A stretch of 32,000 bases of DNA from Halomicronema hongdechloris C2206 (GTDB taxonomy: Bacteria > Cyanobacteriota > Cyanobacteriia > Phormidesmidales > Phormidesmidaceae). Positions 10,230-13,850 of this stretch are shown here, piece by piece. The notes under the pieces are model-generated. The model ran no database searches. It worked only from the letters and a program-made list of their open reading frames with translations, and had not been told where the DNA came from. Location of the stretch: NCBI RefSeq assembly GCF_002075285.3, contig NZ_CP021983.2, forward strand, positions 2,910,001 to 2,942,000. The letters are read 5' to 3'. Position 1 is the stretch's first letter, and each line of letters begins with the position of its first letter. Made by a program: the position numbers and the translations under genes.

Positions 10230-10396
10230 CTGCCGGGAAACCGGGGTGTTAGAGGAAGGTGCCAGATCGCCCGTTGACGCTTGACGCTTTAGCCATAAGT
10301 CAATCGTGTTACGGCTGATTTGGAAGGCAGTACTGGCCTCACTCTTCGTCATCCCATTGAGTTCAATGGCGTCAATGACCTTCTGGCGTAAGTCTA
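10230..10396 (-). mobile_element. IS630-family transposase N-terminal HTH fragment
   Basis: YSLDLRQKVIDAIELNGMTKSEASTAFQISRNTIDLWLKRQASTGDLAP has the typical IS630/Tc1-type N-terminus (YSLDLRqkV......G.s...a...f.vs..tv..W.kr....G.l.p). No DDE domain follows. Confidence 0.6.
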
Positions 10397-10561
10397 GGCT
10401 GTAGGGCTTCGGCTCTCTTTGGGGTGGCGCTTGTCATGGAACAGAATGTACCGACGGATCCACTGCACATAGGTTTGCTCGGTGCGGTAGGAGTAGTGCT
10501 TCAGACGAATGGTGTCGCGAACTTGATCAAGCAGCTTCTTAGGACGAGATTCCGGGTGCAT
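10394..10561 (-). pseudogene. Integron-integrase-type tyrosine recombinase, N-terminal SAM-like fragment only
   Basis: [49 protein letters not shown] compares with IntI1 [38 protein letters not shown]. It breaks off after ~50 aa into the IS630 stub. Confidence 0.6.
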
Positions 10562-10643
10562 AGGGCCGAATACCAATAGAGATGGTAAACAAACCTTAAA
10601 CACTCAAGGCGGCAAAGCGGAGGGTTGATTATACTGAATCTTT

Positions 10644-10760
10644 CAGCCTAATCACCCATATAGGGCGGTTAGGCTGACGTATTTCCACCCATACACCCAA
10701 ATAGGGCATATGGGCTGATGTATTTCCACCTAATCACCCATATAGGGGAGTTATGCAGAA
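10644..10760 (+). repeat. Three hairpin-type ~41-bp repeats (possible attI-region recombinase-binding repeats)
   Basis: The units are cagCCTAATCACCCATATAGGGCGGTTAGGctg, then acgtatttccac-CCCATACACCCAAATAGGGCATATGGG-ctg, then atgtatttccac-CTAATCACCCATATAGGGGAGTTATGC. The first unit closes on GTTAGGC (10668-10674). Confidence 0.6.
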
Positions 10761-11021
10761 TAGTTCTCTCTAATAACGAGTTAGCCTGCTGAGATATTGG
10801 TTGGACGTAGAAAAAGCTGATCCCCGGATTGCAATATCCCAAAAACACGTGCCCTTGGTTGGGTTGCCATGCTTGGTCAGTATTGGTTCTTGATTAAGAC
10901 GTGTTTTGAACGTTGTCAATAGGGTATGCCCAAGGTTAGATTTGTTCTAGCTCGTAGAATAAAGGGTGTTATCTACTGCATTTGGGCTGATAGGTAGTGC
11001 TATATAACTTTATAGAGAAAC

Positions 11022-11528
11022 ATGGAAATCATTCCGAAATTTGAAATTGGCACCTTTAAAGGCAAGGTCGCTGGATATAACGAATACAGATTTATCTGTC
11101 GATTATTTATTCCTCCCAATCGAGATGAGGCAACAGTAGTATGGCTTCGTGAAAAAGAAGCTTTAGTACTCAGCACCAGTTTCGAGAAGCCATACTCCAA
11201 GATTATTTTTGCCACAAATAACGACAAGATTATAAGAAGCATTCATCATAAGTATGGAATATCTAAGGTAGATTTAAAGCTTTTGTACACAGAGATTGAT
11301 GCTTTCGATGAAAAGTCGGAAGACGATTTCGAAGAGTTTTATTCTTCAACGGAATATCAAGCTTATGATGATGAATACTATCAAGATACCCAGAGGGAAA
11401 TCCTTGATTATATGACGGATTACTCTAATGCCATGGTTGCATCTTCTGAAAATGGCTGGTTTTATGATGAGACGATCCATTCAAAAAATGAAGCCTTAAA
11501 GTTGGCATTAGAAGAAGATCTTTACTGA
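11022..11528 (+). CDS. Hypothetical protein, 168 aa, acidic Tyr/Asp/Glu-rich C-terminal half
   Basis: This is a clean ORF in a 37-38% GC block (23/60 and 22/60 G+C in two sampled lines). The C-terminal part is DAFDEKSEDDFEEFYSSTEYQAYDDEYYQDTQREILDYMTDY. I recognise no domain. Confidence 0.65.
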   Translation: MEIIPKFEIGTFKGKVAGYNEYRFICRLFIPPNRDEATVVWLREKEALVLSTSFEKPYSKIIFATNNDKIIRSIHHKYGISKVDLKLLYTEIDAFDEKSEDDFEEFYSSTEYQAYDDEYYQDTQREILDYMTDYSNAMVASSENGWFYDETIHSKNEALKLALEEDLY

Positions 11529-11596
11529 TTTAAAGTTCCTAAAGACGACATCAGACAAGTAAATAATCTTGCATATAAACGAGGAAAAATAAATTT

Positions 11597-11890
11597 ATGA
11601 GCGATAAATTATATAATGTCAATAAACTTTCTGCTGAGGAAATTCCTTTTCATAATTACTTTGAGTTGTTGGCATCTGAGTTTGGCCATAAGTATGAGAT
11701 TTGGGTGCGAAATGAGGACTTTGGCCGATTTGTAGCAGTTGGTGTTGTGAACCGAAGCTCAGGAATAGCTGCGACTATTTACTTAAAGCGTGGCGGTGTT
11801 GTGATATCTAATCCATTAAACCAAGAAACAATTGTGAAGATAAGAAGTCATTTGAATTCAGGCGCTAAGGAAGACTTGTGCATTAATTAA
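11597..11890 (+). CDS. Hypothetical protein, 97 aa
   Basis: ATG is preceded by GAGGA 14 nt upstream. It lies on the same strand, 68 nt after the previous stop. I recognise no domain. Confidence 0.6.
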   Translation: MSDKLYNVNKLSAEEIPFHNYFELLASEFGHKYEIWVRNEDFGRFVAVGVVNRSSGIAATIYLKRGGVVISNPLNQETIVKIRSHLNSGAKEDLCIN

Positions 11891-11992
11891 ACACTATATC
11901 TATTGCAGGTATAATTTAAAGGATTTGCAAGGAAATTTTAGCCAGAAATATTAGTGATATTAGAGCTAATTTACATAAAGGATTATTTAGAG

Positions 11993-12511
11993 ATGAGTGA
12001 TATTCCAGTTCAGCTACTTCAGCATCTTGGCAAGCATGGTGTGCGCATGAGGCAATTCCTAAGCGATGATTTCAGCAATATAGATGATTCTCAACGTCGA
12101 GAAATGGCTACAGAAGCTCGCCAAATTACGGCTTGGGCAGCGGCGGCTATCGCACCTATGCCTATACCATTCGCCGATATCTGGACGATTACACCAGTGC
12201 AGATGCTTATGGTTCGGGCTATCGGTAATATTTATGGATACAAAATTGATAGTAAAACAGTTAAAGAGATGCTTGCGGTTATTGGCGGCGGAATGCTTGG
12301 TCAACAAATATGTCTTGCGCTGTTCAAAATTGGCTTACCCGGTGCTGGGGGTTTTGGAGGTGCTGCATTCGTATTTTTCTGGACACATGGTATTGGCAAA
12401 GCAGCAGAACTTTACTTTCAGAGCGGCATGACTGCGACTGCAGAGGAACTTGCGGCAGCACGCAAGGAGGGAATGGAACAAGCAAAAAATGAAACACCGC
12501 GCACTGAGTAA
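11993..12511 (+). CDS. DUF697-like membrane-associated protein (172 aa from ATG 11993)
   Basis: AAAAIAPMPIPFADIWTITPVQMLMVRAIGNIYGYKID...LALFKIGLPGAGGFGGAAFVFFWTHGIGKAAELYF is the DUF697 pattern (PiP.aD...ltpiQ..Mv..Ia.iYG; glycine-rich hydrophobic hairpin; T.aiG). AAGGA lies 13 nt upstream of the ATG. Confidence 0.65.
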   Translation: MSDIPVQLLQHLGKHGVRMRQFLSDDFSNIDDSQRREMATEARQITAWAAAAIAPMPIPFADIWTITPVQMLMVRAIGNIYGYKIDSKTVKEMLAVIGGGMLGQQICLALFKIGLPGAGGFGGAAFVFFWTHGIGKAAELYFQSGMTATAEELAAARKEGMEQAKNETPRTE

Positions 12512-12535
12512 CCAATGGCATAAGGTCGCGGCGCA

Positions 12536-12618
12536 AGCTAACACGTCGTTGGAGCCGAACGGCGAGAGGTTATCAGTCTATATTATGATGCTATCTGCGT
12601 CGGCTCAACTATGACGTT
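12536..12618 (+). other. attC-like recombination site, 3' end (AGGT, 13695-13698) separated by the IS insertion
   Basis: AGCTAAC (R''-like) ... imperfect inverted arms with bulged bases ... GTT|AGGT (R' GTTRRRY once the IS and one TSD copy are removed). The reconstructed length is 87 nt. It begins 25 nt after the DUF697-like stop codon. Confidence 0.55.
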
Positions 12619-12630
12619 GGCACTGTCCTG

Positions 12631-13296
12631 TTAAAGAGTGAGAGACTCAAATCCCCTGGCTAATAGGATTTCAGAGAGCTTCAAGGGGCGCTGAATAAAT
12701 CCCATGGCCATGGCTGGTGTTCTGGCTTTGCCCAAACTCCCATGAGGCCGCACCCAATTGTGAATCAAACGCTGTACATCCAAAGCTCGCTGTAATCCCT
12801 CCACCTGCTTGGCATAGTGATTCTGTCGCCTGCGATAGGCCGTTGCCCGTCGCCTCAAAGCACTGTTGAAGGCTTCGAGGTGATTGGCATGAACCTCGCT
12901 GAGGGCACTGAGGGCCGTCCAAGGATGCTCAACGTTGAGCCACTCTACCCTAGGTTTACCTTGAGAGCCTTTGATCTTGATGGCCACCTCTAGACCCTCC
13001 CGCCACACCTTGCGATAGGGATAGGCGTCGCTGCTGAGGTGGCTCGGCAGATAAACGCTGGCCAGTTTCCACAATGCCTTGCCGTAGCGCCGCTCTCCAT
13101 CGGTAAACCAGCGAATCCATGCACTGGGCTCTGCCCACTGCCAAGCCCGCTGAACTCCCTGTTCAAATAACTCAGCCGCCTTGAGGCCCGCGCTGGCTTC
13201 TAGCCAGTAGCGACTCTTGCGTTCAATGAAGCTAATGGTCCAGCCCTCAGAGGCTGCGGGGGGGAAGGTTTTCACCGACACGGGTGTAGAGTTCAT
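12631..13296 (-). CDS. insB: IS1-family InsB (DDE) ORF, presumably expressed as an InsAB' fusion by -1 frameshift
   Basis: GWTISFIERKSRYWLEA...WFTDGERRYGKAL...HANHLEAFNSALRRR is present. It overlaps insA by 50 nt in the -1 frame. The overlap contains GAAAACCTTCCCCCCC (A4 and C7 runs, ~13257-13275). Confidence 0.8.
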   Translation of the reverse strand: MNSTPVSVKTFPPAASEGWTISFIERKSRYWLEASAGLKAAELFEQGVQRAWQWAEPSAWIRWFTDGERRYGKALWKLASVYLPSHLSSDAYPYRKVWREGLEVAIKIKGSQGKPRVEWLNVEHPWTALSALSEVHANHLEAFNSALRRRATAYRRRQNHYAKQVEGLQRALDVQRLIHNWVRPHGSLGKARTPAMAMGFIQRPLKLSEILLARGFESLTL

Positions 13297-13627
13297 CGCC
13301 TTCTATGGTGACATCTCCGCCTGCCCCGGCAGGCGGGGACCAGGCGGGCAGATGAGAGGATGAACGCTCTTCCCAGGTCGTAATACTGCTAGGTGATGTC
13401 CCCACGACTCTGGCGGCGGCTCTGACGCCCAGCCCTTCGTGTCGAGCATTGAGGGCCATCTCGACGGTGGCTACTGGGGCGCGTAGACGGGCCATGGGGG
13501 TGCCGCTGCGTTCATTGAAGCGACGACCGCAGGTGTTACAGAGATATTGCTGGAGCACTTGACCCGTTTTGAGGGTTTTGGTGCCATTCTTGACGATGGC
13601 TTCACTCTGACAATGGATACAAGGCAT
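13247..13627 (-). CDS. insA: IS1-family InsA (zinc-finger/HTH) ORF
   Basis: MPCIHCQSEAIVKNGTKTLKTGQVLQQYLCNTCGRRFNERSGTP is a CxxC...CxxC zinc finger, followed by an HTH. Confidence 0.8.
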   Translation of the reverse strand: MPCIHCQSEAIVKNGTKTLKTGQVLQQYLCNTCGRRFNERSGTPMARLRAPVATVEMALNARHEGLGVRAAARVVGTSPSSITTWEERSSSHLPAWSPPAGAGGDVTIEGDELYTRVGENLPPRSL

Positions 13628-13850
13628 TGGACCGAAAGGCTTGCTGTATCTAAAGTCTAGCTCTCACTCCATAATCTGACAGTGCCATGACGTTAGGTTG
13701 TTTACCCTTTGGTTGTGGGGCATTCGTCCGCTTATCTGTTGGTGTTTAAGAGGCATTCGGAGAAAGGCTAGATAGTCAAGGTGTAATACCAAGTCTCTAA
13801 AGCAAAGTTATAAATAGAGGAGTTGAAACATGTTTACACCTCTGGGTGGG

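Follow-up and report, generated by a model that had tools for sequence, protein, structure and literature searches.

How does a gene for an "integrase/recombinase" of only 55 amino acids come to lie beside an island of low-GC (guanine + cytosine) DNA and an odd palindrome in the cyanobacterium Halomicronema hongdechloris C2206, and do the three belong together? The DNA in question is part of a stretch of 32,000 nucleotides (the window; all coordinates below are positions in it), and the answer, in which we place high confidence, is that the locus is what decay has left of an ordinary chromosomal integron, with a stub of intI, an attI site, a captured low-GC block, and an attC site that is split by an insertion sequence (IS). 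As to type, it is very probably a fossil of the sedentary chromosomal kind, as common in filamentous cyanobacteria. This analysis established what the stub is, where attI joins the cassette DNA, the attC, the IS, and the modular way in which the captured open reading frames (ORFs) are distributed. The three ORFs and the attC lie on the + strand and intI on the - strand; the ORFs are embedded in DNA of 33-46% GC, as against 55-61% in the flanks, and the HIP1 motif (GCGATCGC) is absent from 10184 to 13869, all of which agrees with what an earlier note on this DNA, made from the sequence alone, had recorded. Low GC and missing HIP1 speak for a foreign origin of the cargo. The integron core motif, for its part, is of little help: GTTRRRY occurs 46 times in the window against an expected 47.6, so that the motif by itself is uninformative, and the evidence must be sought in homology and context.

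The stub ORF (10394-10561, - strand) is 100% identical to the annotated 55-aa "Integrase/recombinase" of C2206, whose genome measures 5.58 Mb. Only residues 1 to ~49 (10415-10561) are derived from IntI; the final six codons come from an IS630 fragment. The stub matches the Pfam family PF13495 at positions 1-41 of 85 only, and the first 40-46 positions of two NCBIfam integron-integrase models; on TIGR02249, where 40 of the 315 model positions are present, it scores 43 bits, below the cut-off of 265. No other pieces of intI, the IntI-specific additional domain included, were found in the window with tblastn. The stub is a piece of an IntI gene and does not itself amount to a functional IntI. What identifies it is its family: a scan of one genome per GTDB species yielded relatives in 563 stretches, of which the best 80 loci (L001-L080) were examined. 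The relatives' N-termini are 75-91% identical to the stub, and in 45 of the best 80 loci the ORF reaches 300 aa or more, the frame running on for ~315 residues past the LLDQ motif. All ten of the full-length relatives that were tested (from ten other genomes) match TIGR02249 in a single end-to-end stretch at 438-478 bits, which implies that the IntI-specific additional domain is present in them; on the XerC and XerD models the same ten break into two separate stretches that score far under the cut-offs. Since the full-length relatives are IntI by TIGR02249, the stub is the N-terminus of an integron integrase. The earlier note had seen the parallel to the N-terminus of IntI, had made its proposal hang on a grouping with IntI rather than XerC/D, and had suggested looking for an intact intI in related loci; on each of these counts the relatives bear it out.

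How did the gene come to be so short? After ...HPKE the sequence goes on in another frame as the N-terminus of an IS630-type transposase (PKPYSLDLRQKV...), a fragment of about residues 2-60 at 10222-10412 (- strand; the lower boundary is approximate). The joint falls at transposase codon 2 and an IS end is absent, which makes it a deletion joint and not a simple insertion. Thus the claim that the stub breaks off into IS630 holds for the transposase frame that follows; the break itself is not an IS end. After ~60 residues the IS630 fragment passes in turn into the C-terminal part of a family-1 glycosyltransferase pseudogene with an internal stop (9939-10221, - strand, upper boundary approximate), which shows the local context to be one of decay. 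Both joints are deletion joints within a decaying region. A chimeric ORF of 66 aa at 10152-10352 (- strand) spans the second of these joints, with the helix-turn-helix N-terminus of the IS630 transposase in frame with the glycosyltransferase motif EGWG...E-A-x-A-x-G-x-P-V (family 1); the remainder down to 9939 has the internal stop.

Short intI frames are not peculiar to this locus. Of the best 80 loci, 35 have a frame of less than 300 aa, and many have their intI match no more than a few hundred bases from where the contig ends, on the cassette side. Among proteins, the 120 best matches to the stub all measure 45-121 aa. A stand-alone family of small proteins (~100 aa) was considered as a home for the stub and rejected: the protein matches end at varied points, and full-length genes are carried by 45 of the 80 genomic loci. 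Taken together, the short frames, the short protein matches and the contig ends near intI suggest that intI decay, and assembly breaks at attI or in the array, are common in filamentous cyanobacteria.

The DNA upstream of the stub has fared better. The segment from 10561 to 11021, compared by BLAST with the relatives' loci, finds its matches directly upstream of their intI genes, and an alignment of ten loci discloses a common layout: a leader with ATGATTATACTGAAA, two or three 41-nt units TTTCCACCTAATCACCCATATAGGGnnTTAGGCTGACGAA, and a short site TTTCCCTCTAATAAAGAGTTA. In the window (aligned with nine relatives) the leader block occupies 10562-10640; its near-invariant ATGATTATACTGAAA reads TATAAT on the intI strand at 10628-10633, and the block is a putative promoter. 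The three units follow at 10641-10763, each with inverted CCTAA...TTAGG boxes (10641-10677, 10682-10718 and 10723-10759, at 41-nt spacing), and then the terminal attI site, CTCTAATAACGA-GTTAGCC, at 10768-10786 on the + strand. Homology among the ten loci ends right after the GAGTTA of the terminal site (CTCTAATAAAGAG/TTA, the slash marking the predicted crossover), and homology to the cassette DNA of L081, an unrelated 45-kb metagenomic contig, begins at 10779. These two boundaries place the predicted crossover between G10780 and T10781, and not in the first unit, a 15-bp inverted repeat (87% complementary) closing on the GTTAGGC at 10668-10674 that had earlier been taken for the attI core. 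The core used would instead be GTTAGCC at 10780-10786, after the third unit. The site thus lies beside intI, as an attI should, with a G/TT crossover predicted from the aligned sequences: the conserved block ends GAG/TTAGCC, one position off GTTRRRY, and 10780/10781 is, by this comparison, the attI recombination point.

What might the 41-nt units be for? A pattern search collected 66 of them in ~30 related cyanobacterial loci, at a fixed offset from intI, and found the terminal site in more distant loci as well, Chloroflexota included. The earlier note had described three hairpin repeats where attI lies in integrons. The units are there, in the attI region and at the fixed offset, and it is the hairpin that fails: over 54 units the inner stem pairs at 0.63, as compared with 0.60 after shuffling, and a value as high as the observed one arises in 254 of 2000 shuffles. 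Only the inverted CCTAA/TTAGG boxes are conserved, and covariation lends a hairpin no support; folding hairpins were therefore discarded as an interpretation. With inner-stem pairing at the level of shuffles, the units are better read as protein-binding sites in duplex DNA, presumably for IntI. One may go further and propose, tentatively and at somewhat less than even odds in our own estimate, that an attI of two or three CCTAA...TTAGG units plus CTCTAATAAAGAG/TTA is conserved across the IntI clade of filamentous cyanobacteria, that its units are accessory IntI-binding sites, and that the attI of H. hongdechloris might accept cassettes in trans. The units abut the intI -10 box and so could couple recombination to intI autoregulation.

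At the far end of the block lies the second recombination site. The attC starts at 12536, 25 nt past the stop codon of the last ORF, where an attC-like element had already been proposed, and all of it except its last 4 nt lies at 12536-12618 on the + strand: R'' (AGCTAAC) at 12536-12542, the L'' arm at 12548-12562, the L' arm at 12595-12609, and the first three bases of R', GTT, at 12616-12618. Beyond the IS, at 13692-13698, stands the intact R' box, GTTAGGT; it overlaps the second copy of the IS target duplication (13687-13694) and marks the end of both the attC and the array. Without the IS and one duplication copy the site reads AGCTAAC-ACGTC-GTTGGAGCCGAACGG...CTGCGTCGGCTCAAC-TATGAC-GTTAGGT and is 87 nt long, within the ~57-141 nt expected of an R''-L''...L'-R' element; R'' has one deviation, R' is GTTAGGT, and the L'' arm has two unpaired positions. 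Its bottom strand folds at -12.8 kcal/mol (z = -2.4).

Both arms, properly spaced, were found by BLAST upstream of intI in Leptolyngbya sp. JSC-1 and in another genome, and a pattern search gathered a family of 79-86-nt elements, 18 of which (none from the window) were aligned to build an attC covariance model. In the L''/L' stem 9 of 13 pairs carry compensatory changes, and in the attC family as a whole 12 of 20; when the R''/R' pairs are added, 90% of cells are paired, as against 23-46% when the partners are slid. Run on the window, the model matches 12536-12622 over its full length at 60.9 bits (E ~5e-15); elsewhere in the window it gives 40.8 bits at 3462-3547 and otherwise at most 10.3 bits. 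The check that the earlier note had called for, an attC covariance model applied to the site, was thus passed with a model derived from the relatives' arrays. In 669 kb of the 80 relatives' loci it reports 78 sites. Every one lies upstream of intI, 77 of the 78 are on the opposite strand to it, and the spacing of the sites is 0.1-2.7 kb, as is characteristic of cassette arrays.

These observations bear on the least integron-like of the explanations that can be offered, namely that a fragment of a phage or Xer recombinase, IS debris and a low-GC insert have come together by chance in a generic genomic island, the "attC" being an ordinary palindromic repeat or terminator. GTTRRRY occurs, as noted, at chance frequency, fragments of both IS630 and IS1 are at the locus, and an Rfam scan of 3000-14000 at E <= 1 returned no match, neither an attC family nor any other RNA, all of which would suit such an island. 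Set against this are the full-length relatives of the stub, which are IntI, a repeat family that stands almost exclusively upstream of and divergent from intI and has an R''/L''/L'/R' layout with covariation, and the boundaries of the low-GC block, which coincide with the attI G/TT on one side and the attC on the other. We consider a chance assembly scarcely credible and return to the dead integron.

A second attC of the same family lies at 3462-3547 on the - strand, the strand opposite to that of the array attC, ~7 kb from the stub and ~9 kb from the array attC (E ~3e-9; its R' is degraded to GTTCCGA). It borders a low-GC block (42-50% GC, in the surroundings at 2600-7300) that encodes an SLFN_AlbA_2/HATPase_c_4 protein and a ParA-like ATPase, then Uma2 and a DUF2442/DUF4160 pair; HIP1 is absent over the whole stretch 415-8840 around it. 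The second site may be a leftover of this integron or of a different one. An origin by one inversion between copies of IS630 was rejected: core-like genes bearing HIP1 lie between it and the stub, and there is no intI C-terminus to the right of the array. Elsewhere in the window (26162-26546, - strand) GTTGGGT recurs four times at an exact spacing of 126 nt, which points to a tandem 126-nt (42-codon) repeat, unrelated to the integron.

What split the array attC is an IS1-family element of 1,068 bp (12619-13686, - strand) with 27-nt inverted ends, flanked by an 8-bp target duplication, ATGACGTT, at 12611-12618 and 13687-13694; IS plus one duplication copy are exactly the 12619-13694 that the earlier note had proposed to delete in silico. 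The insertion is just past the GTT of the R' box, so that with the IS present only the last four attC bases are displaced (GTTGGCA for GTTAGGT) and the site still scores 60.9 bits. Family membership follows from the inverted repeats, the duplication (within the 8-9 bp of the family) and the transposase matches: NF050000 scores over its cut-off, and NF033558 matches the first transposase ORF at E = 1.9e-12 (47.5 bits, under the 100-bit cut-off, on a partial protein). The transposase is split by an extra C in a C7 run (13258-13264, - strand) into one ORF at 13627-13247 and another, in the +1 frame, at 13296-12631; dropping one C restores a single ORF of 331 aa. A mutation may have caused the split, or programmed frameshifting, or an error of sequencing in the homopolymer.

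A stretch much like the left part of this locus is found in L083, an ENA metagenome contig, where the attI units, the attI-ORF1 junction and the beginning of ORF2 recur at 3650-4905 with ~83% identity. The adjoining intI has decayed in a different way (...PPRLKQLFAQVRDVSYRAEKT...), and the fossil integron seems to be common to at least two lineages, that of H. hongdechloris and that of L083. Might the platform nevertheless be alive, served in trans by an IntI from elsewhere in the genome or acquired by transfer, the locus then being an integrase-less docking or donor site? The attI is intact and agrees with the consensus of functional-looking relatives; to the left of the IS the attC still has R'', the two L arms and the GTT, and with the IS in place it matches the model over its full length at 60.9 bits; and the mobilisation of cassettes in trans, without a local intI, has been discussed (PMC4889954). 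The 32-kb window holds no second intI, however, and both the ORF1-ORF2 joint and the attI-ORF1 junction are common to a metagenomic relative whose intI is decayed, which suggests long immobility. We judge activity in trans to be distinctly improbable, and a dead platform remains the preferred reading.

What had this platform captured? The cassette DNA extends from 10781 to 12616, or 1,836 bp, rather less than the ~1.95 kb of the first estimate, and it divides into two modules. The first (10781-11562, + strand) comprises a 240-nt leader and ORF1 (11022-11528; 168 aa, without a known family) and is 88% identical to L081 at 7759-8541. The second (11563-12535, + strand) comprises ORF2 (11597-11890; 97 aa) and ORF3 (11993-12511; 172 aa, of the DUF697/YcjF family). 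In L081, ORF1 stands alone within an array of small toxin-antitoxin-type genes, homology stops at 11562, and unrelated DNA lies beyond. In L082 two + strand ORFs and a tiny remnant of intI precede its homologue, which has an attC of its own (28.8 bits) 135 nt further on; homology with L082 stops at 11534, again with unrelated DNA beyond. L083, with the same attI and ORF1 and a decayed intI, has only the start of ORF2. Conversely, ORF3 is present without ORF1 in L085, L086 and L088; it is 93% identical at the protein level in L085 and L086, and L086 retains the last 26 nt of ORF2 ahead of it. The relatives' context, which the earlier note had wished to see compared, thus turns out to be one of cassettes or attC sites for ORF1 and ORF3 alike. 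All three ORFs together are on no contig besides the window. Since ORF1 and ORF2-ORF3 occur apart elsewhere, the simplest reading is that the cargo is probably made up of at least two fused former cassettes, ORF1 and ORF2-ORF3, whose intervening attC has been lost; the single three-gene cassette that had been proposed at the outset is probably not what was captured.

How an attC may be lost is illustrated by L085 (591-610) and L086 (755-774), where the DUF697 gene is followed, beside the housekeeping gene ychF, by AGCTAAC-TACGAC-GTTAGCC. This looks like a collapsed attC from which the whole L''-L' part has been deleted between short AAC repeats, and may represent one route to cassette fixation. 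In L087, a contig of Microcystis aeruginosa BS13-10, a disrupted copy of ORF3 (the DUF697 gene) lies upstream of two other small ORFs and an attC of the same family (1559-1644, 60.1 bits). Cassettes with this attC type are therefore not confined to filamentous cyanobacteria but extend to unicellular ones of low GC, in keeping with the low GC of the cargo.

Several points tell against the account given so far, in whole or in part. The stub is too short to include the IntI-specific insertion, so that it was assigned through its nearest relatives. A pattern drawn from the window's own element served to collect the attC family, which deprives the E-value in the window of full independence; the covariation, and the bias in strand and position among the relatives, do not depend on that pattern. 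Only one attC belongs to this array. No cassette promoter (Pc) was identified by a consensus scan, which called none at the conserved TATACT/TATAAT block at 10628-10635; the consensus match that it did report, at 10913-10942, falls within the cassette leader. Two further points concern the fusion of cassettes. The ORF1-ORF2 joint, being common to the window and L083, must be old, and the covariance model finds no trace of a lost attC in the 68-nt and 102-nt gaps between the ORFs, in agreement with what had been noted by eye, so that only the way in which the modules are distributed points to fusion. The empty gaps, together with the order of ORF1 and the start of ORF2 in L083 and the remnant of ORF2 before ORF3 in L086, would also be accounted for by one original three-gene cassette, of which the ORF1-only and ORF3-only versions are deletion derivatives. 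The attC after ORF1 in L082, the abrupt passage into unrelated DNA at 11562 and 11534, and the confinement of the complete trio to the window count the other way. A single original cassette strikes us as unlikely, if well short of negligible, and we retain the fusion of at least two.

The proteins of the cargo were compared with several libraries. ORF1 has only five relatives among 5.8 billion proteins, and an exact-sequence look-up found no record of it. ORF2 is a real, conserved small protein (71 representative clusters, the best aligning over residues 1-97). For ORF1 and ORF2 there was no PADLOC match at E <= 0.1 and no defence-system match, and other libraries were marginal (PHROGs, 0.018-0.087; Pfam, ~0.01 for ORF2; NCBIfam, 0.089 for ORF1). 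Structure prediction with AlphaFold gave poor models (pLDDT 53 and 57), and Foldseek searches against the PDB returned nothing at E <= 0.001. ORF3 has a match to PDC-S29, but only a weak one.

The state of the locus can be set beside that of its intact relatives. There, intI lies on one strand, and the attI directly upstream of it consists of the putative promoter block, two or three 41-nt units and the short terminal site; cassettes would enter at the G/TT of that site, and they run on the other strand, each ending in an attC of ~84 nt. In H. hongdechloris a deletion has joined intI, at codon ~49, to a fragment of an IS630 transposase that starts at codon 2 and is itself joined to a glycosyltransferase fragment. 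The attI is intact, and after it come 1,836 bp of captured low-GC DNA (ORF1, ORF2 and the DUF697 gene) closing on one attC; this DNA most likely stems from two adjacent cassettes after loss of the attC between them. Later, in the order of events that we infer, the IS1-family element would have entered the R' box of the remaining attC, after its first 3 nt.

Where does such a relic fit among known systems? Integrons have been reported in Cyanobacteria (Cury et al. 2016, PMC4889954; PMC8352920; also Boucher 2007, here as cited in PMC2426708), and a conserved cyanobacterial attC type has been modelled earlier (PMC8352920). Like sedentary chromosomal integrons, the locus has a divergent intI, an adjacent attI, cassettes on the opposite strand, and an attC whose R''/L''/L'/R' elements are alike within the taxon; unlike them, it has an intI of ~49 residues, one attC left in the array, and an IS in that attC. 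Pseudogenes of intI, IS inside integrons and integrase-less cassette clusters are all documented (PMC4889954, PMC2426708), and loss of intI and IS-linked rearrangements are the proposed origins of loci of the CALIN and intI-pseudogene kinds (PMC4889954). Like these, the locus is cassette DNA without a working integrase. The definition of a CALIN, however, asks for two or more attC sites with no intI close by (PMC4889954), and the array here has one; having no integrase, the locus is not a complete integron either, and thus it falls between the categories of IntegronFinder. Of the earlier designation, "degraded chromosomal integron (or CALIN)", the stub, the attI and the attC uphold the first half, and the count of attC sites disallows the second.

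Two further comparisons suggest themselves. The attI1 of class 1 integrons combines a simple site with direct repeats, DR1 and DR2, that bind IntI1. The attI described here similarly has a short crossover site of the form ...CTAA(n)GTTRRRY with repeated elements resembling integrase boxes between it and intI; it differs in that the accessory elements are three 41-nt inverted CCTAA/TTAGG pairs, conserved across genera, for which integrase binding is a prediction. IS1111-attC elements and group IIC-attC introns are mobile elements that target attC sites. As with these, a mobile element lies within an attC here; in contrast to them, it belongs to the IS1 family, makes an 8-bp duplication, and is present as a single copy, which gives no evidence of a preference for attC.

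What, then, is new? From cyanobacteria, integrons have been described before, and so have pseudogenes of intI and a conserved type of attC. Only the conserved attI layout was not found described. In the library that could be searched, no paper pairs Leptolyngbya with both integron and attI, or Halomicronema with integron. For integrons at large, the locus leaves present understanding as it was. The IntegronFinder screen for pseudogenes uses a profile of the IntI C-terminus (PMC4889954), and an N-terminal stub such as that of H. hongdechloris would be missed by it. Because such stubs, and single attC sites, escape standard screens, the base-precise attI boundaries and the attC model that the comparison has yielded for a large and little-studied group of cyanobacterial integrons could improve annotation.

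For H. hongdechloris itself, a misannotated 55-aa "integrase/recombinase", a low-GC island and an odd palindrome are explained as parts of one dead integron, which, lacking a local IntI, would no longer be able to acquire or shuffle cassettes of its own. One can think of the locus as an instance of the passage from mobile cassette to fixed chromosomal gene block in what would be three steps: 1) loss of the integrase, 2) loss of the internal attC, and 3) insertion of an IS into the last attC. For the wider family, it is the conserved layout of the attI that might repay experiments.

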